Shown here: positions 3,730 through 43,242 of the stretch, piece after piece
How positions within the stretch are numbered: the first letter of the stretch is position 1
How the letters are laid out: the number at the start of each line of letters is the position of its first letter
From: an uncultured Chromatiales bacterium
GTDB taxonomy: Bacteria > Bacteroidota > Ignavibacteria > SZUA-365
Direction: 5' to 3'
Assembly: GCA_964635845.1 (NCBI GenBank)
Contig: CAZWNO010000002.1
Location: 44,901 to 108,900, forward strand
DNA length: 64,000 nucleotides
Notes under the pieces: generated by a model
What the model saw: only the letters and a program-made list of their open reading frames with translations
Told to the model about the DNA's origin: nothing
Databases searched by the model: none
Program-made: the position numbers and the translations under genes

Positions 3730-3818
3730 TGGATACGCCGACCTGACCCGGCCTGGCATCCGCGGACGGAACGATCCCGCACCGCACTCTGTTTCTCTTT
3801 CTTGAACGACAGGCAGTT

Positions 3819-4739
3819 ATGCAGAATTACCAACGTCAGACATTTCGACCGCAGTTCGGCGGATTCAGCTTCTTCCCACCGGTGATCAAGTACCTGCTGC
3901 TTGCCAACGTCGCAGTCTACTTCGTCCAGATGATGCTCGAGGGCGGTTTGCTCACGTTCCAGGGGGAACCCCTGTTCAACTGGTTCGCGCGCACCTTCTA
4001 TCTCTGGCCGCTCGGCAGCGGTGCGTTCATGCCCTGGCAGCTGGTGAGCTACATGTTCCTCCATGGGACATTCATGCATCTCTTTTTCAACATGATCATG
4101 CTGTGGATGTTCGGGGTGGAGCTGGAGAACACCTGGGGCTCGCGCAAATTCCTGTTCATGTATTTCGTCGCGGGAATTGCCGCGGGCCTTGCGAATCTCC
4201 TCATCGCGCCGATGTTCACCGGGACCGGCCCGACCATCGGTGCGTCCGGCGGCGTCTACGGCGTGCTCGCGGCCTTTGCGATGGTATTTCCGGACCGGCA
4301 CATCTATTTTTATTTCTTCATCCCGATGCGCGCCAAGTACCTGATTTCCGGACTCATCCTCCTCGAGGTCGTCTACAGCGTACTCGGCACGCAGGAAGGC
4401 ATCGCGCATGTTGCGCATCTCGGCGGGGCTGTCATCGGCGGGCTCTGGGTGCTGCTCGATAAAAGCGGACAGATCGATCGCTGGCTGAGCCGCCGCGCCG
4501 GAAAAACCGGTATCTCCCCGGGTTTGAATGACAAGCCGCGCGACGCGAAGTTCTATGAATTCACTCCGGGCGTGCGGGAGAAGAAATCCGGTGACGAGAG
4601 CTTCGACGCCGCGCAGAAGCGCATCGATGAGATCCTGGACAAGATCAGCGTGTCTGGTTACGCCGGACTGACGGAAGAGGAGAAACGCATCCTGCTCGAC
4701 GCGAGCAAGCGCATTCACCCGGACAAGAACTCCCTCTGA
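3819..4739 (+). CDS. rhomboid family intramembrane serine protease with a C-terminal soluble extension
   Basis: Multiple TM segments. GASGGVYGV (GxSG catalytic Ser) and AHLGG (catalytic His) motifs. Confidence 0.8.
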   Translation: MQNYQRQTFRPQFGGFSFFPPVIKYLLLANVAVYFVQMMLEGGLLTFQGEPLFNWFARTFYLWPLGSGAFMPWQLVSYMFLHGTFMHLFFNMIMLWMFGVELENTWGSRKFLFMYFVAGIAAGLANLLIAPMFTGTGPTIGASGGVYGVLAAFAMVFPDRHIYFYFFIPMRAKYLISGLILLEVVYSVLGTQEGIAHVAHLGGAVIGGLWVLLDKSGQIDRWLSRRAGKTGISPGLNDKPRDAKFYEFTPGVREKKSGDESFDAAQKRIDEILDKISVSGYAGLTEEEKRILLDASKRIHPDKNSL

Positions 4740-15764: not shown

Positions 15765-16027
15765 CCGCCTGATTCGGAACGATCGAATCTACCGGGATCA
15801 GAAACGGCGGGGCTTCCGCGCACATCGCAGCTGTGATTCACGGGAATCCTTGAACTCGCATCTCCGCGTTCTGCGTGGAAATGCGTTTTTTTCCTGGCTG
15901 TTCAATTTTTTTCTTGCTTTTCGGGAAAGACCGCCATACATTGCAGTCCTCACTCTCACTCACCTCTCTCCACTCTCACTTGTTCTGTGACAGGATTACC
16001 TATGTCGTTCAGAATACGGTGAGAACC

Positions 16028-16867
16028 ATGCATCGCATCAAAATTACCGCACTGGCGCTGTTCATGCTGTCCGGCGTGAGTATCGGGCAAACCTCCGTAC
16101 AGACCGGGGACTTTGCCATGCTGTTTCCGTCGGTCCCGGGTTCCGTATCGGAGCAGCATACGGGTGACGCATTCCCGAGCGGTCGGACGCGCACGGCGAT
16201 ACCGGCAGCAGAGATGCCAGACCTGATGCATTTTACACCGCGGACATTGCCGGCATCATTCGATGCACTCCCTATTCCCATGGGGATGACTGATCAAGGC
16301 TCACCCGAAGCGGATCTTATCTCATTCGAGGGTTCCTATGTCAAGGATCTGGTACGTCTGAATTGGACGGTGCGCCACAACGCCGATGCGCTTGGATTTG
16401 CGGTTGAACGCAGGTCGCAGGCAGATGAGCGCTGGAGCACTGTGAGCTACGAACGCGCGGATACAAAACGCAACAGGAGCGGTTACTGCTACTTTGACCG
16501 TTCAGGAGTGCGCGGTGTGACGTATTACCGGATTCGCCAGGTTGCAGCGAACGGGAAGAGCGTCCCGACTCCGGCAATCTGCGTGATGCCGCATCTCGTG
16601 CCGAATTCCTTTGTCATCTGGCAGCACACCGTCGACCCGTTCACGCGTTTCGGTACGGTCTCGTTCGGACTCGGCAGTTCGATGGCGGTTTCCATGACAA
16701 TGATAGACAGCTTCGGACGCAGTGTCTCCACCCTGCTACATACCACCAAGCTCGAAGCCGGGCATCATTTCCTTCCATTCAGCACTTATGCGCTCCCGGC
16801 AGGCGTGTATTCCTTACGACTGGAAACTTCAGAGGGAGTGCACTTCCAGCGTATCGCAGTGATCTGA
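16028..16867 (+). CDS. secreted protein with an FN3-like central domain and a C-terminal T9SS-type sorting domain (paralog 1)
   Basis: Signal peptide MHRIKITALALFMLSGVSIG. C-terminal roughly 70 aa (..MIDSFGRSVSTLL..AGHHFLPF..LPAGVYSLRLET..) matches the Por-secretion-tail pattern. Central region paralogous to the next gene. Confidence 0.6.
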   Translation: MHRIKITALALFMLSGVSIGQTSVQTGDFAMLFPSVPGSVSEQHTGDAFPSGRTRTAIPAAEMPDLMHFTPRTLPASFDALPIPMGMTDQGSPEADLISFEGSYVKDLVRLNWTVRHNADALGFAVERRSQADERWSTVSYERADTKRNRSGYCYFDRSGVRGVTYYRIRQVAANGKSVPTPAICVMPHLVPNSFVIWQHTVDPFTRFGTVSFGLGSSMAVSMTMIDSFGRSVSTLLHTTKLEAGHHFLPFSTYALPAGVYSLRLETSEGVHFQRIAVI

Positions 16868-17005
16868 CGTTCGTAAACCGAACGCGCCTGTCCGCATCCC
16901 GTATGTTCTCGACAGGAGATGCCCAAAACCACTGTTTACAGGCGTCTTCCTCGCTGGCACGATGATTGCTCTGTGCAGTCAACAACAAGATATTCCAAGG
17001 ACATT

Positions 17006-17653
17006 ATGAAATTCGCAGTATACCTGACGATCGTTCTCGCTGCGCTCACCTGCCCAGCGGCCGCTTCGGAACCGACCAACATCTCCGGCAGCGTGGATAT
17101 CAGGCGTTTCTCTGTCGCACGCATTCAGGACATGATCACACTGAACTGGAATACGCGTGGCGAGCGCAACAATCTGGGCTTCGAAATCGAGCGCAAGAGT
17201 CAGTTCGAAGAGCAATGGACCACGATCGGATTCATGCGAGGACGCGGTACGGCCAACGGAGACCAGGATTATGCTTTCGTGGAAAAACTGAACAGCAGGG
17301 AAGTGCTGTTGTACCGTCTCAAACAGATCGACACCCGCGGCAACGCCATGTATTCGCAGGCGGTGATGGTTACTCCCGATGAGATCCCCGCTTCGATGCG
17401 TGTCAGCCCGGGATTGAAACAGCATATGGTAGAATACAACCGGATCTCCTTCGCCCTTCCGAGGGAAAGTGCGGTGCTGATCACTGTTCACGACGTATTC
17501 GGCCGCATCCTGCGCACCGTCGCCGAAGAGCAATTCACGGCCGGGTATCACGTCATTCCATTCGGGTCGGTGTCGCTACCTCCGGGATTATACAACGTTC
17601 GACTCCAGACCAGGGCTGGAGTCCTTACACAGACACTGATCAAGACTTCATAG
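17006..17653 (+). CDS. secreted protein with an FN3-like domain and a C-terminal T9SS-type sorting domain (paralog 2)
   Basis: Signal peptide MKFAVYLTIVLAALTCPAAAS. Shares the ..LNWN..LGFEIER.S...W...... domain with 16028-16867. C-terminal ..HDVFGRILRTV..AGYHVIPF..LPPGLYNVRLQT.. tail. Confidence 0.6.
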   Translation: MKFAVYLTIVLAALTCPAAASEPTNISGSVDIRRFSVARIQDMITLNWNTRGERNNLGFEIERKSQFEEQWTTIGFMRGRGTANGDQDYAFVEKLNSREVLLYRLKQIDTRGNAMYSQAVMVTPDEIPASMRVSPGLKQHMVEYNRISFALPRESAVLITVHDVFGRILRTVAEEQFTAGYHVIPFGSVSLPPGLYNVRLQTRAGVLTQTLIKTS

Positions 17654-22578: not shown

Positions 22579-23019
22579 ATGTCCTCTGCAGAATACACCG
22601 TTCCCGTCTGGTTCTTCGAGCAATCCGCCGTCATCCCCTGGCGCCGGCATCATCGGGGCATCGAGGTTCTGCTGATCACCAGCGCGCGGAAGAGACGCTG
22701 GATCATTCCGAAGGGCGTGATCGAACCGGGCATGGGGGCGCGCGCATCTGCGCGAAAGGAAGCGCTTGAAGAAGCGGGTGTCGACGGCATCGTCTCGGAC
22801 GAACGCATCGGTGACTACGTCTACAGAAAATGGAACGGCAATTGCCGTGTGCAGGTCTTCGGTCTCATGGTCACGGACGTGCTCGATCACTGGGAGGAAG
22901 AGCACGTGCGAAAGCGCCGCTGGGTGAGCGTGCGACAAGCGCAGGAACTCGTTGACACGCGCGAGCTCAAACTGCTGCTTCGCAGATTCGCGCACCGCCT
23001 CGATACCTTCCTCGAGTGA
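22579..23019 (+). CDS. NUDIX hydrolase
   Basis: Nudix box GVIEPGMGARASARKEALEEAGV (G-x5-E-x7-REALEE-x-G). Confidence 0.8.
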   Translation: MSSAEYTVPVWFFEQSAVIPWRRHHRGIEVLLITSARKRRWIIPKGVIEPGMGARASARKEALEEAGVDGIVSDERIGDYVYRKWNGNCRVQVFGLMVTDVLDHWEEEHVRKRRWVSVRQAQELVDTRELKLLLRRFAHRLDTFLE

Positions 23020-23401
23020 TCAGCCGCCCTGCGCGCGCTTCGACGTCTGCCTCGCCCGATCCTCTGCCCCGCACATCCCCCTGCTTTATTCCCGATCCTT
23101 CCTCCGCTGCATCCGATCCTCCGCCCACGGGATTTTCTCCGTGCATTTCGGATATCCGATACCCTCAATAACTCGAAAGTTACGTCCGCGAACGGGGAAA
23201 AATTTATTCCTTTAAGTTTTAAGTATTATTGCGTATCATTGTCGAGCAACTTCCATCCTGAGCCAGTTGTCCCGCCGCGCGTCTTGATGTTGAGGAGCAT
23301 CGAGAGAGTTGTACCGGATGTCTCCCTTCAAGACTCCAACCGCAACGCCTGTACACTGTAACCCGTGTGTGTCCCTTCAGGGCAGACACTCTGAGCGAGC
23401 A

Positions 23402-23833
23402 ATGACAATGCCGAAACAATCCGCCGTACTGCTTCTTCTCGCCATTTCCATCGCGCTGCTGACCGCCGGCTGCACGGATTCGATTGTCTCGGACTGTGGC
23501 GAACCGATGTCCGATCCGGTTCGCGCGCGGTTCAGCGACATCGAACAGCGCGTATTCGCGCAGTCCTGCGCGCTCGCGGGATGTCACAGCGGCAGCTCGC
23601 CGGCTTCGGGACTCGACCTGTCGACCGGTCAGGCATACGTCCAACTCGTCGGTGTGACCAGCCTGAACGACCCGTCTCTCAAACGCATCGAGCCGGGCAG
23701 CAGCGCACAGAGCCTGGTCATCCGGCTGCTGCGCAGGGAACGTCTTCCGGTGATGCCGCCAACCGGTCCCATCGAAAGCGCCGTGATCGATTCCATCGCG
23801 GCGTGGATCGACGCGGGAGCTCTGAGGAACTGA
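23402..23833 (+). CDS. lipoprotein with a planctomycete-type cytochrome-c-like (PSCyt1-like) domain carrying a non-canonical C-ALAG-CH (CX4CH) motif
   Basis: Lipobox LLTAGC. The FAQSCALAGCHSG..GLDL..MPP..WIDAGA pattern parallels the PSCyt1 consensus (R-C-x-x-CHSG..GL.L..MPP..W...GA), except the heme motif has four residues between the Cys instead of two. Confidence 0.5.
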   Translation: MTMPKQSAVLLLLAISIALLTAGCTDSIVSDCGEPMSDPVRARFSDIEQRVFAQSCALAGCHSGSSPASGLDLSTGQAYVQLVGVTSLNDPSLKRIEPGSSAQSLVIRLLRRERLPVMPPTGPIESAVIDSIAAWIDAGALRN

Positions 23834-23891
23834 TCCGCCTGCGAACGAAACTCATCCACTCTCGATCCGCTTTCCGGAAAAAGGAGTACAC

Positions 23892-24509
23892 ATGAAACGA
23901 ATCATCTCTGCACTGCAATCGAAGCGGCCGGCAAGCCTGCCGCTTCGTCCGCTTCTGTTCGTGCTGCTGCTCATCGCACAGTTCGACGGTCTGGCGCAGA
24001 AAACCGAATACCACGTGGACAAGAGCGCGAGGAACAGCGTGAAGTTCATTTCCGACGCGCCGGTGGAAGACTTTGAAGGCGTCACCGAGGCGATAGACGG
24101 CTACCTCGTTCATGAGGGCAATGATTTCACCTCCGGCAGCGGACTGTACTTCGAGGTCGATCTGCGCAAACTCGACACCGGGATCGGTCTCCGCAACCGC
24201 CACATGCGGGAGAACTATCTGCACACGGACAAATACCCCTACGCGAAATTCACGGGAAAGATCACGGAGGCGACACCGTCGGGCGATAAGACCAAGGTCA
24301 AGGTACAGGGCAGCATGGACATTCACGGGGTCAAGCGCGGCATGGAGGTCACCGGCACGATCAGCGGAAGTGGCGACAAGCTGCGCATCAGGACGACCTT
24401 CGACGTCCGGCTCACCCATCACAAGATCGAGGTTCCGCAGCTCATGTTCGTCAAGATCGACGAGAACATGGAGCTCGTGCTCGATTTCACAGTCAAAAAA
24501 GTCAAATGA
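23892..24509 (+). CDS. YceI family periplasmic protein (polyisoprenoid/lipid-binding)
   Basis: Signal peptide, then a YceI-like pattern (VKFISDAPVEDFEG..GL.NRHMRENYLHTDKYPYAKFTG..). Confidence 0.8.
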   Translation: MKRIISALQSKRPASLPLRPLLFVLLLIAQFDGLAQKTEYHVDKSARNSVKFISDAPVEDFEGVTEAIDGYLVHEGNDFTSGSGLYFEVDLRKLDTGIGLRNRHMRENYLHTDKYPYAKFTGKITEATPSGDKTKVKVQGSMDIHGVKRGMEVTGTISGSGDKLRIRTTFDVRLTHHKIEVPQLMFVKIDENMELVLDFTVKKVK

Positions 24510-24523
24510 CAGGATTATCGAAT

Positions 24524-25369
24524 ATGCGTTCTGCGATCATCGGCCTGCTCACTCTGTGTCTCGTTCTCCCTGCCGCGGCTCAGGAGGAATCCTCGGGCTG
24601 GAAGCGCTCCGAGGAGGAGGCGCACCTTCCACTCCAGCTGTTCCACTCCACCCAGGCGGTGAATCTCCCCACCGCGGAGGTGCTGCAGCAGGGAAATCTC
24701 GAGTTCGAAATTTCCCATCGCTTCATCCCGACGATCAGCGATGGCAGCAGGAACCTGTGGGGCTTCGACGGACCGGTCAACATCCGGCTCGCGCTCGGAT
24801 ATGCCTACAGCAACATCGGGTACGTCACCCTGGGGCGGAGCAACGTGCAGGACAACCTCGACCTTCACGTGAAGCAGCAGCTGTTCTCGTTTGAGAACGA
24901 CCTGCTGCCGGTGCTCGTGGCGGCGCGCGTCGGCGCAGCATGGAACACGGATGTCCCGAACCGAGACGCAGGCGACGCGGACAATCTGCAGTACTACGCT
25001 CAGCTGATCGTCAACACGATGTACGGGGACAACCTCGCACTCGGCGTCGTCCCTTCCTACGTCGGGAACAGTCACATACTTTGTCCCGAGCGTCAGTACT
25101 CGTTCGTCATGGGCGTGCACGCGCAATACTACATCACCAACGTGCTGAATGTCCTGGCCGAGTGGATCCCCACCGTCAGCGGATGGAGAACAAAGCACAA
25201 TACCGTCGCATTCGGGATCGAGCTGGAAACCGGCGGCCATTTCTTCAAGATCATCCTGAGCAACAACGATCTCCTGAACACCGCGCAGGTGCTTGCCGGA
25301 GCCGAGGATTCTTTCAACGATGCCGACTGGCACATCGGCTTCAACATCACGCGCCTGCTCGCTCTCTAG
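24524..25369 (+). CDS. hypothetical outer-membrane-type protein (signal peptide, beta-strand-rich)
   Basis: Signal peptide MRSAIIGLLTLCLVLPAAAQ. Alternating hydrophobic pattern. C-terminal aromatic/hydrophobic residues. Overlaps the YceI stop by 4 nt if started at 24506. Confidence 0.45.
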   Translation: MRSAIIGLLTLCLVLPAAAQEESSGWKRSEEEAHLPLQLFHSTQAVNLPTAEVLQQGNLEFEISHRFIPTISDGSRNLWGFDGPVNIRLALGYAYSNIGYVTLGRSNVQDNLDLHVKQQLFSFENDLLPVLVAARVGAAWNTDVPNRDAGDADNLQYYAQLIVNTMYGDNLALGVVPSYVGNSHILCPERQYSFVMGVHAQYYITNVLNVLAEWIPTVSGWRTKHNTVAFGIELETGGHFFKIILSNNDLLNTAQVLAGAEDSFNDADWHIGFNITRLLAL

Positions 25370-25475
25370 TACACGCGCTTCGTCGCAGTCCGACATCACA
25401 CCGCTGCTTGCCTTCCAGCAGCGGAGTCATCACGGAGTTCACTCACTACTGTTCAACCTTTTTCTGGAGCAATAA

Positions 25476-26162
25476 ATGAAAAGACAGATTCTCTTTTTCT
25501 CCATCCTCCTTGCCGTCGCGTCAGCGACCTTCATCATCGCCCGTCCATTCCGCGTCGGACAGATACCGAACGGCACGAAGAACGCCTGCGCGAACTGTCA
25601 TGTCAATCCTGCCGGCGGCGGTCCGCGCAACGTCTTCGGACAGGAGGTCGAGGCGAATCATCTCACCGAACCGGGGGTCAATGGACAAGTGAAATGGAGT
25701 GCGGCGCTCGCCGTTCTCGATTCCGACGGCGATGGTTTCACGAACGGCCAGGAGCTTCAGGATCCCGAGGGAATCTGGAGGAGCGGACAACCGGCGCCAG
25801 GCAATCCCGCACTGGTCACCCGGCCGGGAGATCCGACTGATTTCCCCGTCACCACGACCGTGCAGCCTCTGCCCGGTGCGGTGAGCGATCACATGCTCGA
25901 GGGCAATTATCCCAATCCCTTCAATCCCGAGACGACCATCCGCTTCCGGATCGGCGAGGCCGGGCACGTGCGCCTCGAGATCTTCAACAGCCTCGGCGCG
26001 CGTGTGCGCGTGCTGGCCGACGAATACATGGAAGCGGGCCGATATGCCGGCAGCTGGAACGGCCGCGATGACGCGGGACGTCTCGTCGATTCGGGCACGT
26101 ACTTCTACCGCTACACCGCCGCCGGCTACAGCGCGACGAAACGCATGCTCCTGGTGAAATAG
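25476..26162 (+). CDS. secreted mono-heme cytochrome-c-like protein (CANCH) with a Ca-binding DSDGDGFTNGQE loop and a C-terminal T9SS-type sorting domain
   Basis: Signal peptide, CxxCH at residues 38-42, Asp-rich thrombospondin-type-3/EF-like loop. C-terminal NYPNPFNPETTIRFRI..GHVRLEIFNSLGARV..GSWNGRDDAGRLVDSGTYFYRYTAAGYSATKRMLLVK is a textbook Por secretion tail. Confidence 0.6.
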   Translation: MKRQILFFSILLAVASATFIIARPFRVGQIPNGTKNACANCHVNPAGGGPRNVFGQEVEANHLTEPGVNGQVKWSAALAVLDSDGDGFTNGQELQDPEGIWRSGQPAPGNPALVTRPGDPTDFPVTTTVQPLPGAVSDHMLEGNYPNPFNPETTIRFRIGEAGHVRLEIFNSLGARVRVLADEYMEAGRYAGSWNGRDDAGRLVDSGTYFYRYTAAGYSATKRMLLVK

Positions 26163-26250
26163 GAGAGGAGGGGAGGAGGAGAGGAGGGAAGAAGGGGCTA
26201 CTTTCTTTCTTTCCTTCTCCCCTTCTTTCCTTCTCCCCTACTTTCCTACT
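26161..26250. repeat. homopurine tract (36 nt of A/G) followed by a homopyrimidine tract forming a mirror/inverted repeat; probable bidirectional terminator or H-DNA-forming element
   Basis: AGGAGAGGAGGGGAGGAGGAGAGGAGGGAAGAAGGGG then CTACTTTCTTTCTTTCCTTCTCCCCTTCTTTCCTTCTCCCCTAC, between convergent genes. Confidence 0.5.
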
Positions 26251-28517: not shown

Positions 28518-30404
28518 CTACCGCAGGATCTGTACCTGTCGTGACGCTGCGCCGTTCTCCGTCCGCAGCACTACCTGGTAGTTGCCTGAAGGCAATGCCG
28601 AGAGATCGAGTGACAGCTCATCCGTCCCTGCTTCGAATCGTTTTTCACTCTCGTACAGAATTCTCCCGAGCATGTCGCAGAGCATGATTCGCGAATCCAT
28701 CGGTCGATCGAATGCGAGACGAAGCCGCAGGTGATCCCGTGCCGGCGATGGATACGCGTCGATGATCCGGAACGCCGCCGCGAGCGGTGACAGCTCCTTC
28801 ACGTCGAGCGTGGCGAGTCCGAGCCGCGCACAGTATATCTCGATATTCCCGTCGTTCATGCGTCCGTCGGACCAGAAGGGGAGGATCTCGGTATCGGTGA
28901 CGATCACCTGTGTATATTCCCCGATTCCGAAATCACTGTTTTTCTCCTTCGCCTTGTACATGTTCATCGGCAGGGCCGCGACAGGCCTGTTGGGCAGGAA
29001 GTGTCTGCCGCCGTCGCGCGATACCGCGATGTAGTAGCGTGCACTGGCGTTCGTTTCATCCTCGCGCCGATCGTACCAGGTGACGGCGACAACGCCCTGC
29101 GCGTTGACGGCGATGCTGGGATGGAACTGATCCCGCACGAGGCCTTTTTCATCATCGTTGATGATGCGCGGCGCCTCCCAGCTCAAGCCGTTGTCGGAGG
29201 ATCGCGAGAAATAGATGTCCGTGCCATTGCCCTCCTTCCGCGTGATACCGTTGGCGGTCCATGTCATATAGACATAGCCGGGATTCCCGCCGCGGTCGGC
29301 ACAGAATTGCGGACTGGGGTACATGCGTTCACTGGACATACCGGGAATTTCCCCGAGCCGATCTTCAATGGAAAATTTTGGGAATACTATATCCGATATC
29401 TTCGTCACGGACGGAAACGTCGCGCCTCCGTCCGTCGACAGGGCATGCCACAGACTGAAGTGCTGTTCATCGGCCGAACCGAACCAGGTCACATGCACTC
29501 CGCCCGAGGCATCCACATCGATGCTGGTGAACTGGACGATGGCGAGAGAATCCGGCGAAACGATGACCTGCGGCGAATCGAATTGCCGCGCCCCGGGCGA
29601 TTTGCTTCGCACTCGTATCTGCATGCGGTCATTGCTCGCTCTGAAATACGCGGCATACAGGGTACCGCGCGTGGGCGCCGTGCTGCGATCGACGGCCAGC
29701 CATTGCTTGTCGACAAAATTCTGCGCGGGATCATCCATCGAGTAGCGAGCCGTAGCGATCACATCCCGCTCCGGCCGCACCCATGTCGCCCCTCCATCGC
29801 TGGAAGTGGCCCAGTACAGCTCCGAGACTAACTCGTCCATCGTCTGTGGGAGATAGAAGGCCAGCCATGAGAAATACAGCGTCCCGTCATCGTCCGCCGC
29901 AAGTACCGGATCGCCCCCGCCCAGCAAAACGTCATCGGGATCGGGGAGCTCGGTGACGAAGGGGCTGACCTGCCATGACGCTCCATCGTCGAGTGTGTAG
30001 TACACAGGACAGGTGAGATCCTGGATGGTTCCATGGGACACCCGCTGCCGGATGGCTGCCACGATGAAGTTGCGCGGAGCCACCGGATTCACCACCGCAT
30101 GCACCTCCGACTCGGGATACAGGTCATCGCTGATGACGCTCTCGGTCCAATCGTCGTCCTGCGCCGCTTTCTGCCTCACGCCGGTGGACGTACTATTGTC
30201 CATACGATCACCGGATTTCGATGAAGCGGTGTGCGTGTCATTCCCGAGTTTCGCGGCCTCCCGTTCCACAGACGGGAGACGCAGGCGCGTATGCTTGCGC
30301 ACGGCTTCTTCCAGCAGTTGTTTGCGGAAGGATTTCTGCTCCTGTGCCTGCAGGGGACAGACGAGAACAAGCAAGGTTAAAATGGAAAGCAGTTTCACAG
30401 GCAT
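28518..30404 (-). CDS. secreted BNR/Asp-box repeat protein (sialidase-like beta-propeller) with a C-terminal T9SS-type sorting domain
   Basis: Asp-box motifs SSDGGATW, STDGGATF, SSDNGLSW, SRDGGRHF. C-terminal ..DMLGRILYES..AGTDELSLDLSALPSGNYQVVLRT.. tail. Start set at MPVKLLSILTLLVLV. Confidence 0.7.
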   Translation of the reverse strand: MPVKLLSILTLLVLVCPLQAQEQKSFRKQLLEEAVRKHTRLRLPSVEREAAKLGNDTHTASSKSGDRMDNSTSTGVRQKAAQDDDWTESVISDDLYPESEVHAVVNPVAPRNFIVAAIRQRVSHGTIQDLTCPVYYTLDDGASWQVSPFVTELPDPDDVLLGGGDPVLAADDDGTLYFSWLAFYLPQTMDELVSELYWATSSDGGATWVRPERDVIATARYSMDDPAQNFVDKQWLAVDRSTAPTRGTLYAAYFRASNDRMQIRVRSKSPGARQFDSPQVIVSPDSLAIVQFTSIDVDASGGVHVTWFGSADEQHFSLWHALSTDGGATFPSVTKISDIVFPKFSIEDRLGEIPGMSSERMYPSPQFCADRGGNPGYVYMTWTANGITRKEGNGTDIYFSRSSDNGLSWEAPRIINDDEKGLVRDQFHPSIAVNAQGVVAVTWYDRREDETNASARYYIAVSRDGGRHFLPNRPVAALPMNMYKAKEKNSDFGIGEYTQVIVTDTEILPFWSDGRMNDGNIEIYCARLGLATLDVKELSPLAAAFRIIDAYPSPARDHLRLRLAFDRPMDSRIMLCDMLGRILYESEKRFEAGTDELSLDLSALPSGNYQVVLRTENGAASRQVQILR

Positions 30405-30598
30405 TCCTCCACCTCCGGGATGATGTGACATGGTTTCGACGAGAGAAGTCGTATGCATTCAATATACGAGGAATTGACCTGAAATTCATCAGTTCGCCTT
30501 CAGACGCAATGATCGATTTTTCCCTTACCTCGCAGCGCAGGCTGTCGTATATTATTCAAATAAGCTGAATTCTTCCACACACAACATCCGGATAGCTT

Positions 30599-33598
30599 AT
30601 GCGACTTGCAGTACCAATTCTCGCAATGTTCATTGCTCTGACAATGATCACCGACGCCGCGGCGAAGGAACGTCCGCGTCCTGCGTCGCCAGCCGTTACC
30701 GTTTCCAACGACCTCGTGCCGGGGATAGTCTTCGTCAAATTCAAGGACAGCCGAACGCTCGCGCCCGGCGGGGCCGCCACGGGTATCGGCAGCGTCGACC
30801 GCATACTCGCCCGCGCGATGGCTTCCTCCGTCGAGCCTTTACACCGGACCCTGTCGCAGCGAAAGAGCTTCAACTCCACGCAGGAGGCGAGTCTCGCCCG
30901 CATCGTGAAAGTCCGCTACTCCGCGTCGCTCGATCCGAAGCAGCTTGCCGCCGAACTCGCGGCAGATCCCTCCGTCGAGTACGCCGAACCGTACTACGCC
31001 TTCCGTCCGCTGCACACGCCCGACGATCCCCGCCTGACAACGCAGTGGGCCGTGACCATGCTGAAAATGCAGGAGGCATGGGACGTCACCACGGGTGATT
31101 CCACGATCTCCATCGGGTATGTCGACTCCGGTGTGAATTACGCCCACGAGGACCTTTCCCTCTCCCTCGCGATCAACGCAGGTGAATGGGGTGCGAACGG
31201 CGAACTCAAGGACAACGGCCTCGACGATGACGGCAACGGCTACATCGACGACTGGCGCGGCTGGGATTTCGTCGGGAACGGCACTTTGACGGCGCCGAAT
31301 CCGGATAACGACCCGATGGATTTCAACGGGCACGGGACCAACGGCGCGGGGATTGCCGCTGCACGCACCAACAACGGAAAGGGAATCGCCGGCATTGGCT
31401 ACATGACAAAAATCCTTGCGATCAAGGTGCAGGACGATGCGGGCCAGACCGGCTTCGCAGGTTATGAGGGGATCACCTACGCCGCCGACATGGGCTGCCG
31501 CGTCATCAACTGCAGCTGGGGCGACAATGCGATGATCAGTCAGACACTGCAGGACGTCGTCGACTATGCATGGTCGAGAGGCGCGCTCGTCGTCGGCGGT
31601 GCGGGCAACAGCGTCATCGACAACGACATCAACCCGTTCATCCCCGCTTCGCTGAACCATGTGCTCAGCGTCAGTTCCTTTGAGGAAGACGGCAGCAACA
31701 GCGCCTGGGCGGCCTACGGCGCATCGGTGCACGTCTACGCACCCGGCACCAACGTGCTCACGACACGCGGAAGCTTCGGCTACCAGGCCGTGACCGGCAC
31801 ATCTTTCGCCGCCCCGCACATGTCAGGCCTTGCGGCGCTGATCTTCGCCGTGCATCCGGACTGGACTCCCGATCAGGTGCTGCAGCAGATCCGCGTCACG
31901 GCCGACGGTTTCGGCGCGACTCCCGACGCGAAGCGCTATGGCCGGGCGAATGCACAGAAGGCGCTCACCATGAACTCTGTCCTCAACGATCTTCCTGGGA
32001 TCGCGGTCGAGAGCTTCACGGTCAGCACGCCGCAGGGTGCGTATTTCAGCCAGGGCGGACAGACCGCCACGATCAATGTCACGCTCAAGAATCATCTCGC
32101 GCCCGCGGTGGACGCTACGGTGGATCTCGTGCTCACCGGCGCACCGGTCACGGCCACGACGACCAACTTTCCGCTCGGTGCGATGGCGAACATGGTCACC
32201 AAGAGCATAACCATCGAGGTGCGGCTCAACGACGACGTCAAACAATCCGAGGGATACATCCCTGTCATTCTGAAGATCACTTCCGGTACGCTTGTTGATT
32301 TCGAAATCGTGCGCGTACCGATCTATCTCGACGACGCCTGGCATACGGTGGTCGATCTCACGTATCCGTACAACTCGATCGACCAGCCGAACCGTTGGAC
32401 CGTCTGGGTCAGCGGTGATTACGCGCCGAACGGCACACCGACACAGGACATCGCGATCCGCACGACCGACGGCGGCGACAGCTGGCTCTACGCTTTCGGT
32501 ACGGGCTTCCCGAGTGGTCGCGGTGTGTACTGCATCGACGGTATCGATGAGAACAATGCGCTCGTGGGCACGGGTCCGGCAGACGGGAACGCCGCCATCT
32601 TCCGCACCGGCGACGGTGGACAGAACTGGACTTCGTCCAGCGTCTCCAACATGACGGCCTTCGTCAACTGGATTCACATGTTCGACGGTCAGAACGGCAT
32701 CATGCAGGGAGATCCGAAGGGCAATGCCTGGGCGCTCGCCACGACGAACAACGGCGGGCAGACCTGGTCGCCCATTTCGACTCCGCTGGGTGCGGCCACA
32801 GGCGAGACGGGATGGAACAACAGTTACGATGTCGTGGGTGATCATATCTGGTTCGGAACGAACAGCAGCAAGATCTATCGCTCCACCGACCGTGGACAGA
32901 CCTGGACGGGGTATGCCACACCGAGCAAGAATTCGGTCGACGTCAATTTCCGCGATGAACTCGTGGGCATCGCCCGCTTCTCGAAACAGGCCGAGCAGGG
33001 CACGGATACACTCGCACTCACCTTGGACGGCGGTCTCACCTGGTCGCTGATCTCAACCATCGCCGCTCCGTCGGGTTCGACGGCGTTCGAGCGCGGCGGG
33101 AAGCGCCTCTGGTTCTTCCAGGGCGCGAATGCGCTGGTCTCCACCAACCTCGGTGCGACATGGAACGTTCAGGCGGCCCCGAGCGATTTCAATTACGTCA
33201 ACGACGCGGCCGAGTGGAATGACGGAGCCGTCACCATGGTGTTCGCCGCAGGCATCGAGATTTTCCGCTACGCCGGCCAGTTCATGGTGCTCGGTGTCGG
33301 AGACTTGGAAGCGGCGGCGCCGGCGATCCCGCTGCTGCACGCGCTCTATCCGAATCCCGTTGCCTCGGGACGCGACGGCAGCGTCATCGCGCAGCTCCAG
33401 CTCCCCTCGGCGGCCGCGGTTGTGCTTGCAGTTTACGACATGAGCGGCAAGAAGGTACGCGAAGTGCTGAACGCCACGCTCGAAGCCGGCATGCACAGCG
33501 CCCGTGTTTCTACCGCCGGACTCTCCGCCGGCAACTACCTGCTTCGTCTGAGCACGCCGGTCACGAGCAGCGCGCAAAAGCTCGTCGTACTGAACTAG
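30599..33598 (+). CDS. S8 subtilisin-family peptidase fused to an Asp-box beta-propeller and a C-terminal T9SS-type sorting domain (999 aa)
   Basis: Propeptide. Catalytic D (VDSGV), H (NGHGTNGAG) and S (GTSFAAPHMSG). Six Asp-boxes (TDGGDSW, GDGGQNW, NNGGQTW, TDRGQTW, LDGGLTW, NLGATW). Tail LYPNPVASGRDG..VYDMSGKKV..LSAGNYLLRL. Confidence 0.85.
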   Translation: MRLAVPILAMFIALTMITDAAAKERPRPASPAVTVSNDLVPGIVFVKFKDSRTLAPGGAATGIGSVDRILARAMASSVEPLHRTLSQRKSFNSTQEASLARIVKVRYSASLDPKQLAAELAADPSVEYAEPYYAFRPLHTPDDPRLTTQWAVTMLKMQEAWDVTTGDSTISIGYVDSGVNYAHEDLSLSLAINAGEWGANGELKDNGLDDDGNGYIDDWRGWDFVGNGTLTAPNPDNDPMDFNGHGTNGAGIAAARTNNGKGIAGIGYMTKILAIKVQDDAGQTGFAGYEGITYAADMGCRVINCSWGDNAMISQTLQDVVDYAWSRGALVVGGAGNSVIDNDINPFIPASLNHVLSVSSFEEDGSNSAWAAYGASVHVYAPGTNVLTTRGSFGYQAVTGTSFAAPHMSGLAALIFAVHPDWTPDQVLQQIRVTADGFGATPDAKRYGRANAQKALTMNSVLNDLPGIAVESFTVSTPQGAYFSQGGQTATINVTLKNHLAPAVDATVDLVLTGAPVTATTTNFPLGAMANMVTKSITIEVRLNDDVKQSEGYIPVILKITSGTLVDFEIVRVPIYLDDAWHTVVDLTYPYNSIDQPNRWTVWVSGDYAPNGTPTQDIAIRTTDGGDSWLYAFGTGFPSGRGVYCIDGIDENNALVGTGPADGNAAIFRTGDGGQNWTSSSVSNMTAFVNWIHMFDGQNGIMQGDPKGNAWALATTNNGGQTWSPISTPLGAATGETGWNNSYDVVGDHIWFGTNSSKIYRSTDRGQTWTGYATPSKNSVDVNFRDELVGIARFSKQAEQGTDTLALTLDGGLTWSLISTIAAPSGSTAFERGGKRLWFFQGANALVSTNLGATWNVQAAPSDFNYVNDAAEWNDGAVTMVFAAGIEIFRYAGQFMVLGVGDLEAAAPAIPLLHALYPNPVASGRDGSVIAQLQLPSAAAVVLAVYDMSGKKVREVLNATLEAGMHSARVSTAGLSAGNYLLRLSTPVTSSAQKLVVLN

Positions 33599-33737: not shown

Positions 33738-36700
33738 ATGAAAGCTTTCTCCGGCATGTGCATCGCAGCACTGTATCTGCTCCTGGCAGCCTCCCCCACA
33801 CTTGCGGATTCTCCCGAAAGGACTGCCTCTCCCGCCACTTACGGTAAGAGATCCGTTGAGATCGTACCCAACGTCCTCATCGTCAAGCTCCGGCCGCAGG
33901 TCAGCTTCAGCAGCGGCGGTGATCGTCTCGGTGTGCGCGCCCTCGATGCGATACTCGCACGCGTGGGCGCAACGGCGGTGGAGACGTTCAGCACCGTGAA
34001 GGAGAATGCTATGCAGAAGGCCGCAAGGCGTCAGTACCACCACGATCGCATGGTCAAGATCCGTTACAGCTCGACCGATCATCCGGCACTGCTTGCGAAG
34101 GAGATCGCAAGCGACCCGAACGTGGAATACGCCGAGCCGTACTACGTTTATCCTGTGTCCCATACGCCGAATGATCCGCGGCTGAGCACGCAATGGGCTG
34201 TCACCGTGATGAAGCTGAAGGAAGCTTGGGATGTCACGACGGGGGACTCCACCATCATCATCGGCGATGTGGACACCGGCGTGGACTGGACGCATGAGGA
34301 TCTTTCTCTGAGCATCTATATCAATCCCGGCGAGTATGGAACGAACGGCGAGCTTTCAGCCAACGGTGTCGATGACGACAGCAACGGCAAGATCGATGAC
34401 TGGCACGGCTGGGATTACTTCGGCAACGGCAGCTTCTCGGCGCCCAAGCCCGACAACAATCCCATGGACGGCACGCTCGGTCACGGCACCAACACTTCCG
34501 GCTGCGCAGCGGCGCTGGCCAACAACGGCCTTGGCATCGCGGGCAGCAGCTACCGCGCGAAGATACTCGCGATCAAGGCTTCGACGGATCAGACCGGCGG
34601 CGTCGGCGGTTACGAAGGAATCCTTTACGCGGCACAGATGGGCTGCCGCATCATCAATTGCAGTTGGGGCGGCTCAGGTGATCGGTCACAGGCTCTGCAG
34701 GATCTGGTAGACGACGTCACCGACATGGGAGCACTCGTGGTCGGTTCCTCCGGCAATGATCCGATCGACAACGACTACACGCCGCACTGGCCGTCGTCGT
34801 TCAACCGCGTCCTCAACGTCGGTTCGGTCGAATCGAGCGGCGCGGCGTCGACCTGGTGTACCTACGGCACCTCCGTGCATACGTATTCCCCGGGCAGTGG
34901 TATTCTCACCACGAAGAAGGGCGGGGGATACACGAATCCGACCGGGACATCCTTTTCTTCTCCCCTCGCTTCCGGTGTCGCGGCGCTGGTGTTCGCCATG
35001 CATCCCGACTGGACCCCCGACCAGGTTGCCGCGCAGATCCGCGTCACGTCTGACCGTTTCGGAAGCACGCCGACGAGCAAGCGCCTGTCCCGTCTCAACG
35101 CGTTCAAGGCGGTCTCGCTCAACCGGAATCTCGACGAGATTCCCGGCCTTCGCATCAGCCGATTCTCTTACGTGTTCCAGGGCGGTGGTTCGAGTTTCAC
35201 GGAACCGAGGCAGACCGCCCGCGTCACCGTGGAGTTCGAGAATGTTCTCGCTCCGACATCGGCGGCGGCCACCGCGTATGTCGATCTGGACGATCCCTCC
35301 ATCACGGCGAGCGCGACGGATTTCGCGCTCGGTGTCATGAATACCTTCGACAAGAAGACCGTCGAATTCGACGTGGTGCTCTCCGACAAACCGCAGACCT
35401 CCGAAGGCTACCTGCCGGTGCGCATCCGCATCGAGGACGGCGAATACCTTGATTACGTGATGGGACGCATCCCGATTTTCCTCGACGACGCCTGGCATAC
35501 GTCGCTGTCGTTCGGTGCACCGTACTTCACCTCCATCGATGCGGTGAGCGCAACCGTGGTATGGGCGACGGCGAACGTGCAGAGTCAGGATATCTGCGTG
35601 CGAACCGTGAATGGCGGATCGTCATGGAGCAACACCGCCGGTTCTGGATTTCCGAATGGCAAGGGAGTCTACTGCGTGTTCGGCGTGAACAGCAGCATCG
35701 CGCTCGTGGGCACCGGGCCGGATTCCGGCCCGGCTGGGGTCTTCCGCACCACCAACGGCGGAACGCTCTGGACAGGCAGCTCGGTGAGCAGCATCACGGG
35801 CTTTGTCAACTGGATTCATATGTTCGACGCACAGAACGGGATTCTGCAGGGAGATCCCCTCGGCGGAACCTGGGGCATCGCGACCACGACCGACGGCGGA
35901 GCGACGTGGACCAAGGCACCGGGGGCACCGGCCGCTCCCACCGGCGAAGCGGGGTGGAACAACAGCTATGCCGCCGCCGGCGACACACTGTGGTTCGGTA
36001 CCAACAACAGCAAGATCTACCGCTCCGTCGACCGCGGGGCGACATGGAGCAGTTTCCCGACGCCGAGCAAGCATTCCGTCGATATGGTCTTCGCCGACAG
36101 CAGGCGCGGCATGATCCGCTTTACGACCCAGACCAGTTCCGGCGGCACGAACGCCCTGGCGGTGACCAGCGACGGCGGCGAGACCTGGACGCAGCTGAGC
36201 ACCATCACCGTCACGACGGGCGGCAGCATCGAGGTCGAACCCGATGGCAAGCGCTTCTGGTTCATGCAGGGCACCAACGCGCATGTCTCGTCCGACCTCG
36301 GCGCAACCTGGACAGTACAGGCCACGCCTGGCGGCTTCGGACTGATCACCTGTTCCTCCGCCTACAGCGGCGGCATCAAGAGCGACGTGTATGCAGCGGG
36401 TCTCGACATCTTCAAGTTTACCTCGACGTTCGATCCCTACAATACCACCGGCATCGGTGATGCACCCGCGGCCGCCGGTTTCGGGATCGATTATCTGTAC
36501 CCGAATCCCGTTTCGACCGCGTCCGCAGGCGGCATCACCGTCGGCTTCACGCTCGATGAAAGCTCGGCCGCAAAGCTTGCCGTGTACGACAACCTGGGCC
36601 GTGTCGCAGTCGAAGGTCTCGACGCCAACCTCACGGCTGGTGCGCACAGCTTCCGTCTCGACACGTCCGCGCTGAGCACCGGCGTCTATCGCGTCCGCGT

Positions 36701-36749
36701 GCAGGCAGGCGATCGCGCTGCGACGGCAAACCTTCTCGTGATTCATTAG
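33738..36749 (+). CDS. S8 subtilisin-family peptidase fused to an Asp-box beta-propeller and a C-terminal T9SS-type sorting domain (1003 aa; tandem paralog)
   Basis: Same architecture as 30599-33598. Catalytic triad (VDTGV, GHGTNTSG, GTSFSSPLASG). Asp-boxes NGGSSWS, NGGTLWT, TDGGATWT, DRGATWS, SDGGETWT, DLGATWT. Tail LYPNPVSTASAG..VYDNLGRV..LSTGVYRVRV. Confidence 0.85.
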   Translation: MKAFSGMCIAALYLLLAASPTLADSPERTASPATYGKRSVEIVPNVLIVKLRPQVSFSSGGDRLGVRALDAILARVGATAVETFSTVKENAMQKAARRQYHHDRMVKIRYSSTDHPALLAKEIASDPNVEYAEPYYVYPVSHTPNDPRLSTQWAVTVMKLKEAWDVTTGDSTIIIGDVDTGVDWTHEDLSLSIYINPGEYGTNGELSANGVDDDSNGKIDDWHGWDYFGNGSFSAPKPDNNPMDGTLGHGTNTSGCAAALANNGLGIAGSSYRAKILAIKASTDQTGGVGGYEGILYAAQMGCRIINCSWGGSGDRSQALQDLVDDVTDMGALVVGSSGNDPIDNDYTPHWPSSFNRVLNVGSVESSGAASTWCTYGTSVHTYSPGSGILTTKKGGGYTNPTGTSFSSPLASGVAALVFAMHPDWTPDQVAAQIRVTSDRFGSTPTSKRLSRLNAFKAVSLNRNLDEIPGLRISRFSYVFQGGGSSFTEPRQTARVTVEFENVLAPTSAAATAYVDLDDPSITASATDFALGVMNTFDKKTVEFDVVLSDKPQTSEGYLPVRIRIEDGEYLDYVMGRIPIFLDDAWHTSLSFGAPYFTSIDAVSATVVWATANVQSQDICVRTVNGGSSWSNTAGSGFPNGKGVYCVFGVNSSIALVGTGPDSGPAGVFRTTNGGTLWTGSSVSSITGFVNWIHMFDAQNGILQGDPLGGTWGIATTTDGGATWTKAPGAPAAPTGEAGWNNSYAAAGDTLWFGTNNSKIYRSVDRGATWSSFPTPSKHSVDMVFADSRRGMIRFTTQTSSGGTNALAVTSDGGETWTQLSTITVTTGGSIEVEPDGKRFWFMQGTNAHVSSDLGATWTVQATPGGFGLITCSSAYSGGIKSDVYAAGLDIFKFTSTFDPYNTTGIGDAPAAAGFGIDYLYPNPVSTASAGGITVGFTLDESSAAKLAVYDNLGRVAVEGLDANLTAGAHSFRLDTSALSTGVYRVRVQAGDRAATANLLVIH

Positions 36750-43058: not shown

Positions 43059-43242
43059 TGTGCGAAGCCTCCGATGATAATCACATTTGAACGTGCTGCC
43101 GCGGGGCATGCATCGTTCAAGATAAGGAAAAAGCGAGAGCGGCGAAAAGATGCGGGTGCATGCCCCGCATGAATGGCACGGAATCACGATTTCCGTTATT
43201 TTTCAATTGACGCAGCACCTACATACAATGCCGGGATCACAG

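Follow-up and report, generated by a model that had tools for sequence, protein, structure and literature searches.

The stretch at positions 23402-26162 of the window (the whole 64-kb length of DNA that was analysed) raises the question of what joint function could be served by a cytochrome-like lipoprotein, a YceI-family protein, an outer-membrane barrel and a T9SS-tailed protein with a heme motif of its own, all encoded side by side on the + strand. Sediments, soils, springs and guts all harbour FCB phyla in abundance, and, to our knowledge, the exchange of electrons or redox lipids across the outer membrane of these bacteria is almost undescribed. The answer proposed here, chiefly from sequence comparison and with slightly less than even confidence, is that these genes form a self-contained redox module in the envelope of FCB-superphylum bacteria, which would act as a relay around a quinone held by YceI.

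Organization of the locus

The sequence-only reading had described four tightly spaced genes on one strand behind an AT-rich leader of about 380 bp. The ORF list of the window placed the genes as described: gene 1 at 23402..23833 (143 aa), gene 2 at 23892..24509 (205 aa), gene 3 at 24506..25369 (287 aa) and gene 4 at 25476..26162 (228 aa), all on the + strand. Genes 1 and 2 are separated by 58 bp, and genes 2 and 3 overlap by 4 bp (ATGA) or, if gene 3 starts at the alternative ATG at 24524, are separated by 14 bp. A gap of 106 bp containing a small hairpin lies between genes 3 and 4. Gene 1 also has an alternative ATG, at 23408, and its database copy (P0001) has 141 aa. The upstream NUDIX gene ends at 23019, which leaves 382 bp before gene 1. 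The length of the leader was therefore as claimed, but its AT-richness is only mild (GC 0.50-0.54 versus approximately 0.60 in the surroundings).

Within the leader, a non-coding block at 23150..23225 on the + strand (ATACCCTCAAT..AAAGTTAC..GGGGAAAAATTTATTCCTTTAAGTTTTAAGTATT) was conserved in an alignment of the upstream regions of the window and of loci L007, L009, L010, L012, L013 and L014; the leader outside this block was not. By this conservation the block is a candidate promoter or operator. The 382 bp contain no match to the sigma-70 consensus, and a riboswitch or other RNA was rejected because no such family was matched there by Rfam. At the other end, a long hairpin with a purine-rich and a pyrimidine-rich arm (26160..26248, no strand assigned) lies between the convergent stops of gene 4 and an S9 peptidase gene. 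Its RNA fold was calculated at -59.6 kcal/mol (z = -5.0), none of 200 shuffles folded equally well, and it was also flagged as terminator-like in a separate scan, while Rfam returned only sub-threshold look-alikes of microRNA precursors for it. It is likely to be a bidirectional terminator that closes the operon.

Gene 1, a putative cytochrome with a CX4CH motif

The claim that gene 1 encodes a PSCyt1-like lipoprotein with a variant heme motif was upheld. The protein scored 24.0 bits against PSCyt1 (PF07635; cut-off, 22). Among 18 homologs, 9 matched PSCyt1 and 6 matched Cytochrome_CBB3, and the family profile retrieved FoxE (PDB 5MAB, E=4e-8) and also cytochrome c6, so the cytochrome HMM matches that the earlier claim called for were found. 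The signal peptide carries a lipobox, LTAGC, whose Cys24 is nearly invariant (at least 90% of homologs). Export to the periplasm, the site of heme attachment, was deduced from these two features.

The canonical CxxCH is absent from gene 1, and CX4CH stands there instead as C56-A-L-A-G-C61-H62 (codons 23567..23587, + strand). C56, G60, C61 and H62 are invariant in the 18 homologs. The motif is in register with CVSCH, CIACH, CVGCH and CITCH of orthologs occupying the same operon slot, and it corresponds to a two-residue insertion relative to the CxxCH of orthologs L050, L054, L061, L063, L064, L072, L073, L075 and L086. Both forms are mixed and interchanged within tandem-domain relatives of gene 1, and CX4CH is a recognised alternative heme c motif (PMC11492766). 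The candidate axial methionine belongs to M118-P119-P120 (codons 23753..23761, + strand), where M118 and P119 are invariant and P120 is nearly so in the homolog alignment; MPP is present in most operon orthologs. The best reading of gene 1 is thus a lipid-anchored, periplasm-facing monoheme cytochrome c with a PSCyt1-like class I fold, in which the heme would be covalently bound and presumably ligated by His and Met. Judged by these alignments, CX4CH is a common predicted heme motif, interchangeable with CxxCH, in a very large PSCyt1-like family (21,981 cluster representatives), and such sites are overlooked by motif scans based on CxxCH.

Genes 2 and 3, the YceI protein and the DUF5777 barrel

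The assignment of gene 2 to YceI was confirmed by its score against PF04264 (66.7 bits; cut-off, 23.7) and by matches to the solved structures of E. coli YceI (1Y0G, E=7e-5) and PA0423 (7BWL) and to the ubiquinone-8-binding X158 domain (2X32/2X34). The product is a periplasmic, lipocalin-like protein with a signal peptide, and the YceI core motif LDTGIGLRNRHMR is kept in 72 orthologs. By analogy with its family, it probably holds a polyisoprenoid quinone.

Gene 3 had been described as a beta-strand-rich, outer-membrane-type protein with a signal peptide. This description can now be sharpened to the DUF5777 family (193.9 bits; cut-off, 23.1), and the structure was modelled as a closed, 12-stranded transmembrane beta-barrel of the outer membrane. 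The barrel is 45-57% identical across phyla, and the best 120 of 804 DUF5777 homologs are single-domain proteins of 264-296 aa. No Cys-x-x-Cys-His motif was found in the gene 3 protein, and no paper mentioning DUF5777 by name was found in the literature searched.

Gene 4, a Temptin_C protein with a T9SS tail

The N-terminal part of gene 4 (25476..25850, + strand) comprises a signal peptide and a domain matching Temptin_C (PF24784; 52.2 bits; cut-off, 27). Within it lie CANCH (residues 38-42; 25587-25601, + strand) and the EF-hand-type calcium loop DSDGDGFTNGQE (residues 82-93; 25719-25754, + strand). The C-terminal part (25908..26162, + strand) is a T9SS type A sorting domain (TIGR04183; 31.7 bits; cut-off, 23) whose fold matches the CTDs of PorU, PorZ, mirolase and NucA. 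H42, D82, D84, D86, N90 and E93 of the Temptin_C domain are invariant in the homolog alignment. The earlier description of gene 4 as T9SS cargo carrying a CxxCH and a calcium loop was therefore correct, and export to the cell surface by the T9SS is predicted from the tail. At least seven further T9SS-tailed ORFs in the window are in keeping with this placement.

CxxCH is present in nearly all bacterial Temptin_C homologs (P0025-P0124), and in most of them its two Cys are the only ones. The full-length exceptions, P0114, P0115 and P0117, contain 4-8 other Cys; the remaining exceptions appear to be N-terminally truncated and, save P0079, contain none. Temptin-like homologs lacking both CxxCH Cys retain the His, so that the site may serve a purpose other than covalent heme binding. 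The AlphaFold2 model (pLDDT 92) has a helix at residues 33-40 that ends at the CxxCH. The expectation that gene 4 would match a cytochrome HMM was not borne out, as the family identified was Temptin_C with a CxxCH: no cytochrome HMM was matched significantly (best, diheme_GEGP, E=0.0085; 15 bits; cut-off, 300), and nor was any cytochrome in the PDB (best, cytochrome c'', E=0.14, a local match around the motif). The Temptin_C profile matched only calmodulin calcium loops in the PDB, and fold searches gave CTD matches only. A conserved distal heme ligand was not found in the family alignment. A common origin of genes 1 and 4 as heme proteins was rejected (hhalign probability, 19%).

Gene contexts elsewhere were also considered. 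A stand-alone Temptin_C gene (P0041) heads an operon of Rieske, cytochrome b and multiheme c genes, ending 24 bp before the next gene; this favours a redox role for gene 4. Another homolog belongs to a same-strand run with genes for cytochrome P460, PSCyt1, desulfoferrodoxin, AhpC/redoxin and glutaredoxin, while the neighbourhoods of three others (P0076, P0088 and P0119) were uninformative. Heme binding by gene 4 is thus suggested by the invariant CxxCH, the helix-CxxCH geometry of the model and the P0041 operon, and by their sequences the bacterial Temptin_C proteins resemble small cytochromes that bind calcium.

Conservation of the gene set

Linkage was counted over 67 species-level loci with sufficient flank. 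YceI lies directly upstream of DUF5777 in 59 of these (88%), and a cytochrome is adjacent in 50 (75%); 10 loci are without an adjacent cytochrome. All four genes occur in 23 of the 67, and the T9SS protein occurs in approximately 36%. The carriers belong to six phyla (Bacteroidota, Ignavibacteriota, Calditrichota, KSB1, Zixibacteria and Gemmatimonadota), and in L001, L003 and many genome loci the four genes stand side by side amid unrelated flanks. The co-occurrence in related genomes that a module implies was therefore found. As for the four-gene unit itself, the linkage stood but the equal standing of its members did not: the conserved core is YceI and DUF5777, followed by the cytochrome, and the T9SS protein is an accessory.

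Clustering of all flanking ORFs gave no further widely conserved partner, the shared flank families (a 327-aa membrane protein, a 95-aa protein, NUDIX and S9 peptidase) being common to the closest relatives only. No fusions among the four families were found in 397 retrieved proteins, the single exception being a giant T9SS protein that contains two cytochrome domains. Weak "Temptin" matches upstream of the module in several loci were rejected as unrelated T9SS cargo matched by the tail only, and the Temptin HMM was for this reason rebuilt from the N-domain alone. The combination had not been recognised as a described system, and in agreement with this no description of the gene set was found in the literature searched (YceI, Bacteroidetes, Melioribacter, T9SS + cytochrome).

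Proposed function and alternatives

In the proposed redox module, the heme of gene 1 would be held via the CX4CH, expanded by two residues, of a protein that is lipid-anchored and faces the periplasm. YceI, by its family, would carry a polyisoprenoid quinone in the periplasm, and reducing equivalents would be exchanged on the periplasmic side between the quinone or quinol and this cytochrome. The barrel, whose gene is tightly or translationally coupled to that of YceI, most likely docks YceI in a complex at the outer membrane or opens that membrane to its lipid. From the YceI-barrel pair, the equivalents would then pass to or from the temptin-like cytochrome and finally an external donor or acceptor, the presumed substrate. 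The temptin-like protein, encoded in about a third of the species, is not related to the gene 1 cytochrome; it would carry a single heme and an EF-hand-type calcium site and would be left on the cell surface after T9SS export. This reading was deduced from the linkage with unrelated flanks, the cytochrome evidence for gene 1, the CxxCH and contexts of gene 4, the partnership of YceI-like domains with cytochromes in X158 and Cbp2D, the T9SS placement and the closing hairpin.

Several observations speak against the redox module. Conservation is highest for the lipid binder and the barrel rather than for the hemes, and the surface cytochrome is absent from approximately two thirds of the loci. 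Gene 4 has neither the conserved distal ligand nor the significant cytochrome match that would be desired, and YceI family members bind non-redox lipids too. The barrel, as modelled, would be too narrow to house a cytochrome in the way that MtrB/PioB or Cyc2 do, so that there is no evident proven electron route across the outer membrane. An outer-membrane quinone loop, in which barrel-docked YceI would load isoprenoid quinone into that membrane and the inner CX4CH and outer temptin-like cytochromes would cycle it, is improbable but would be of consequence. If it were true, a lipid carrier and not a heme wire would take electrons through the outer membrane, as a third, previously unknown route of electron exchange in diderms that is widespread in the FCB superphylum, and animal temptins would have descended, with loss of the heme, from a surface cytochrome of bacteria.

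That the four genes are mere neighbours with no joint function is hardly credible. The gap and small hairpin before gene 4 and its absence from most loci would suit this explanation, but gene order and strand are kept across six phyla between unrelated flanks, and genes 1 and 4, which alone among the ORFs of 100 aa or more in the whole 64-kb window carry CxxCH or CX4CH, fall inside one 2.8-kb stretch. This pairing and the recurrence with different flanks indicate that the set is more than chance. A rival function is the trafficking of hydrophobic or isoprenoid lipids, with YceI as the periplasmic carrier and DUF5777 as an outer-membrane channel of the COG4313/FadL type. The cargo, imported or exported, could be a quinone, carotenoid, hydrocarbon or fatty amide, and the cytochromes would be accessories that modify or sense it. 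This function is unlikely on balance, yet it deserves appreciable weight.

The heme motifs could also be read in two further ways. Defence of the envelope against oxidative or nitrosative stress would have a five-coordinate surface heme (gene 4) and the periplasmic cytochrome remove superoxide, peroxide or NO, exchanging electrons with the quinone held by YceI; it would be analogous to the yceJ (cytochrome b561)-yceI pair of E. coli and the superoxide:quinone oxidoreductase CybB. The lack of a conserved sixth ligand in gene 4 suggests an open coordination site, and the local resemblance to cytochrome c'' and the Temptin_C gene in the run with desulfoferrodoxin, AhpC/redoxin, glutaredoxin and cytochrome P460 point the same way. 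However, the cytochrome c'' match is not significant, the gene context comes from a single lineage, peroxidase, SOD and NO-reductase signatures were not found in the four proteins by HMM search, and the need for an outer-membrane barrel is left unexplained, so that we give stress defence only a slim chance. Acquisition or handling of free heme, bound at the surface and passed to the periplasm, had been suggested as an alternative in the sequence-only reading and is considerably less probable again. It could draw on the heme-type motifs in two proteins and, in the Flavobacteriia-like locus L005, on a weak match of the gene after DUF5777 to SOUL (E=0.001, below cut-off). A CxxCH or CX4CH with its following His is, however, the mark of a covalent cofactor and not of heme transport; no TonB-dependent receptor, HmuY-type protein or ABC component was conserved with the module in the clustering of flanking ORFs; and the YceI ligands in solved structures are polyisoprenoids.

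The module is compact (three to four genes), strongly conserved and unlike the known multiheme conduits in construction. If it is a redox relay, extracellular electron transfer or redox chemistry at the cell surface would become open to experiment in the Bacteroidota and related phyla. DUF5777 would in that case gain its first functional context and YceI a better-defined role, and the T9SS would be seen to export a c-type cytochrome.

Comparison with known systems

The yceJ-yceI pair of E. coli resembles the module in that a YceI gene stands beside one for a heme protein associated with respiration or quinones. The partner there is an inner-membrane b-type cytochrome, and the pair is without an outer-membrane barrel, a c-type cytochrome or a secreted partner. 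Animal temptin, a water-borne pheromone of Aplysia, shares with gene 4 the invariant His and the DSDGDG..N..E calcium loop; the bacterial Temptin_C members carry CxxCH, while the temptin-like P0114, P0115 and P0117 do not. The literature searched contained no link between temptin and heme, a whole-word search giving mollusc transcriptome papers only.

MtrCAB, PioAB/MtoAB and Cyc2 share with the module an outer-membrane barrel together with periplasmic and surface c-type cytochromes, a lipoprotein or surface-exposed partner and an arrangement in one operon. Their barrels have approximately 16-26 strands and enclose a deca-heme cytochrome or a fused heme domain. In place of the large barrel, of about 20 or more strands, around a multiheme cytochrome that defines MtrCAB/PioAB, the module has a 12-stranded barrel and two unfused cytochromes with one heme motif each, and the gene 3 protein has no monoheme domain N-terminal to the barrel as Cyc2 does. 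YceI as the constant partner of the barrel is a further difference from the porin-cytochrome conduits, the components of which are listed in PMC10654088.

The nearest solved relative of the gene 1 domain is FoxE, the diheme Fe(II) oxidoreductase of Rhodobacter ferrooxidans SW2 (5MAB), both domains of which align with it. FoxE is periplasmic with His/Met hemes (PMC10654088), soluble, built of two CxxCH domains and encoded with FoxY (PQQ) and FoxZ, whereas gene 1 encodes a single-domain lipoprotein with CX4CH in another operon. Cbp2D and Cbp2E of Cellvibrio japonicus and X158 of Saccharophagus degradans are similar in combining an extracytoplasmic YceI-like domain with a monoheme c-type cytochrome. 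In Cbp2D, a secreted redox protein, the YceI-like domain is joined to c-type cytochrome domains, and a redox role was proposed for this pairing (PMC8981238). Cbp2D is one multidomain fusion with a cellulose-binding CBM2, comes from Gammaproteobacteria and has been connected with the oxidation of polysaccharides; the present module has no carbohydrate-binding module and consists instead of separate genes, with a dedicated barrel, a lipoprotein anchor and a T9SS tail.

Composition of the module

The four genes of the module lie on the + strand, and the ORF list places them exactly where the sequence-only reading had: gene 1 at 23402-23833 (143 aa), gene 2 at 23892-24509 (205 aa), gene 3 at 24506-25369 (287 aa), and gene 4 at 25476-26162 (228 aa). 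Genes 1 and 2 are 58 bp apart, genes 2 and 3 overlap by 4 bp (ATGA), and genes 3 and 4 are 106 bp apart. The start codons of genes 1 and 3 are somewhat ambiguous, with alternatives at 23408 and 24524, respectively; 23408 is possibly the start of gene 1, since an identical database protein (P0001) has 141 aa.

Families were assigned with Pfam and NCBIfam HMMs at their curated bit cut-offs. Gene 1 matched PSCyt1 (24.0 bits; cut-off, 22), gene 2 matched YceI (66.7 bits; cut-off, 23.7), and gene 3 matched DUF5777 (193.9 bits; cut-off, 23.1), while gene 4 matched Temptin_C in its N-terminal part (52.2 bits; cut-off, 27) and the TIGR04183 T9SS type A tail in its C-terminal part (31.7 bits; cut-off, 23), with an additional subthreshold match to the bacterial TSP3 calcium repeat. 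By family, the module comprises a PSCyt1-like cytochrome whose motif is a variant one, a YceI protein, a DUF5777 protein, and a Temptin_C protein that is also T9SS type A cargo. This agrees with the earlier view of gene 1 as a PSCyt1-like lipoprotein with a CX4CH motif, as both the motif and the lipobox are conserved, and of gene 2 as a YceI protein. For gene 4, the proposed CxxCH motif, calcium-type loop, and T9SS tail were borne out, and the family was found to be Temptin_C. No gene fusions joining any of the four families were seen among 397 retrieved proteins, apart from one giant T9SS protein with two cytochrome domains.

Within the 64-kb window, genes 1 and 4 are the sole ORFs of at least 100 aa bearing CxxCH or CX4CH. 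T9SS CTD-like tails were found in at least seven other window ORFs (15875-16867, 16919-17653, 28518-30458, 30599-33598, 33738-36749, 43150-45066, and 49673-50887), from which heavy use of T9SS by the organism is deduced.

Conservation in related genomes

Among the loci of gene 1 homologs, L001 had the identical four-gene order, as did L003, whose flanks are unrelated. A variant order was observed in the Flavobacteriia-like locus L005, consisting of a diheme cytochrome, a small CX4CH protein, an OB-fold protein, YceI, and DUF5777. The OB-fold protein, located between the cytochromes and YceI, is "tRNA_anti-like," and the gene after DUF5777 (3375-4076) gave a weak match to the SOUL heme-binding family that was below the cut-off (E=0.001).

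An alignment scan with DUF5777, using one genome per species, gave 199 relatives, of which the best 80 were retrieved as loci L007 to L086. These come from Bacteroidota, Ignavibacteriota, Calditrichota, KSB1, Zixibacteria, and Gemmatimonadota. Their ORFs were scanned with custom HMMs, and counts were made on the 67 loci with sufficient flank. YceI was immediately upstream of DUF5777 in 59 of the 67, and a gene 1-type cytochrome was upstream in 46 and just downstream in 4 (the Gemmatimonadota type). A true Temptin_C domain was present in 24/67, and all four genes were present in 23/67, so that the co-occurrence check set by the sequence-only reading came out in its favor. Genes 1 to 3 are present in Melioribacter roseus and Caldithrix abyssi relatives (L045 and L064). 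No other gene families were widely linked to the module among the flanking genes. We regard the module as real, ancient, and widespread; adjacency of the four genes by chance was rejected.

In one clade (L041, L049, L057, and L060, around position 6000), DUF5777 is solitary, with neither YceI nor cytochrome, and has a hybrid sensor kinase of ~1090 aa on one side and a divergent TonB-dependent-receptor-like gene on the other; in L058 the kinase is beside DUF5777 and the receptor-like gene is absent. Several contigs with solitary DUF5777 are binned as Acidobacteriota or Bacillota and may be misbinned. In Ignavibacteriaceae, an extra T9SS-tailed protein is encoded just upstream of the module (L033, 4044-4913; L036, 3970-4764; also L037, L038, and L044). 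A CxCH motif, G-x-G-C-T-C-H, is conserved in this protein, and the tail is its only Pfam domain.

Heme attachment in gene 1

Across 18 gene 1 homologs, C56, G60, C61, and H62 of the motif and M118 and P119 of the candidate axial Met turn are invariant; the lipobox Cys24 is nearly invariant. The family profile matched both domains of the diheme Fe(II) oxidoreductase FoxE (5MAB; E=4e-8) and also cytochromes c6, and the fold assignment is therefore secure. Orthologs in the equivalent operon slot of other lineages mostly have CA[LTV][SA]GCH. Plain CxxCH was found in this slot in nine loci (L050, L054, L061, L063, L064, L072, L073, L075, and L086), which belong to Calditrichota, KSB1, and Cytophagia-type MAGs. 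The two forms align with a clean two-residue indel, the rest of the motif region being conserved.

When 1.84 billion cluster representatives were scanned in full with HMMER, 21,981 relatives of the gene 1 domain were retrieved at E<=1e-3, of which 6,049 reached E<=1e-10. Many of the relatives have two to eight tandem copies. The best 150 (P0248 to P0397) contain 195 CX4CH and 155 CxxCH motifs, often both within one protein, the CX4CH of these tandem proteins being typically CA[TVL][SA]GCH. CX4CH is among the known heme c attachment motifs (PMC11492766). From these alignments we conclude that CX4CH is probably a functional heme-attachment variant typical of the gene 1 domain family. That it is a degenerate site was rejected on the basis of the in-register CxxCH orthologs and the mixed motifs of the tandem relatives. 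A search for heme motifs by CxxCH alone would miss part of the hemes in such mixed-motif proteins.

Genes 2 and 4

The structures matched by gene 2 are E. coli YceI (1Y0G), PA0423, and the ubiquinone-8-binding X158 domain (2X32/2X34). The YceI core motif is strongly kept across 72 module-linked orthologs, and gene 2 shows no additional Cys, His, or Met signature that would point to a nonlipid cofactor.

Nearly all bacterial homologs of gene 4 (n=100) contain CxxCH, and most have exactly two Cys, namely the motif pair. H42 and the loop residues D82, D84, D86, N90, and E93 are invariant in the family, as are C38 and C41 in the N-domain-only set; Temptin-like sequences without the Cys pair retain the His. 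The loop has the canonical 12-residue EF-hand pattern, and calmodulin calcium loops were the only PDB matches of the family profile. In the predicted model (pLDDT 92), a helix at residues 33-40 ends at C41-H42, which is the usual cytochrome c geometry. The family alignment contains no conserved distal ligand, and genes 1 and 4 have no homology with each other.

Two stand-alone Temptin_C proteins support a redox heme role for this domain by their gene contexts. The gene for P0041 (CASCH, 144 aa; L090, 6001-8844, and L091) precedes a Rieske/cytochrome b/multiheme c operon by 24 bp, and its product looks like a cytochrome that serves a bc-type complex as a dedicated partner. P0106 is in a run of genes for cytochrome P460, PSCyt1, desulfoferrodoxin, AhpC/redoxin, and glutaredoxin. 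Further stand-alone contexts were uninformative. Long Temptin_C proteins of Ignavibacteria (L020, 6822-8447; L028, 7110-8534) have four repeats of ~100 aa inserted between the Temptin_C domain and the T9SS tail. The repeats share a His-rich motif, DHNGNG.YDAPP.DHAW, and match no Pfam family.

Boundaries and noncoding elements

None of the flanking genes (NUDIX, S9 peptidase, and a BNR-repeat T9SS protein) is related to the module. The 382-bp leader between the NUDIX gene and gene 1 had been described as AT-rich; it is mildly so (GC of 0.50-0.54 versus ~0.60 nearby) and not strongly. A block at ~23150-23225 (..ATACCCTCAAT..AAAGTTAC..GGGGAAAAATTTATTCCTTTAAGTTTTAAGTATT..), 170-230 nt upstream of gene 1, is kept in the close relatives L007, L009, L010, L012, L013, and L014, whereas the remaining leader is not. 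The block looks like a candidate promoter or operator, downstream of which a long leader would remain untranslated; Rfam detected no element in the leader.

Gene 4 and the S9 peptidase gene converge, and the interval separating their stop codons is filled exactly by a near-perfect hairpin at 26160-26248 (37-bp stem; -59.6 kcal/mol; z of -5.0) with one purine-rich and one pyrimidine-rich arm. The only Rfam matches of this hairpin were microRNA-precursor look-alikes, all subthreshold. The 106-bp spacer of genes 3 and 4 contains a small hairpin at 25400-25427 (CCGCTGCT..AGCAGCGG; 8-bp stem, no T-run after it), a possible site of RNA processing or attenuation.

Proposed function

All four proteins are predicted to be exported, with positions that are lipid anchored in the periplasm, periplasmic, in the outer membrane, and on the cell surface, respectively. 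Two of the four have conserved heme c motifs, one (gene 2) is from a quinone/polyisoprenoid-binding family, and the genes are linked across phyla. We infer that the module may function as a redox relay in which electrons would pass between a quinone held by YceI and the gene 1 cytochrome. Through the pair of YceI and barrel, this quinone/cytochrome chemistry would be connected with the outer membrane; in loci that carry one, the temptin-like cytochrome would be the surface terminus. The main weakness of the relay is that the 12-stranded barrel is too small to house a cytochrome, and therefore no electron route across the membrane is evident. A quinone loop within the outer membrane itself would resolve this problem, and it is considered improbable.

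As YceI and the barrel form the most conserved core, the module could theoretically serve the trafficking of hydrophobic lipids, which we regard as unlikely but worth keeping in view. The apparently open heme coordination of gene 4, whose distal position is not conserved, and one gene context would fit a defense of the envelope against oxidative stress, an assignment we hold to be rather doubtful. Heme handling, which the sequence-only reading had offered beside electron transfer, is poorly supported.

Relation to known systems

The E. coli yceJ-yceI pair is a precedent for YceI acting with a cytochrome outside the cytoplasm. The same extracytoplasmic teamwork is known for Cbp2D/Cbp2E (PMC8981238). 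The module is not a Cbp2D/E system because its genes are separate, it has no CBM, and it belongs to other phyla and uses another secretion route. It also lies outside the MtrCAB/PioAB and Cyc2 classes because it has neither their barrel size nor their heme number nor a fusion. In the literature searched, no paper was found on DUF5777 or the four-gene set, and the module yields testable hypotheses. Its logic resembles that of MtrCAB/PioAB, Cyc2, and Cbp2D/E, and we rate it as akin to envelope redox modules in which cytochromes are combined either with an outer-membrane barrel or with YceI.
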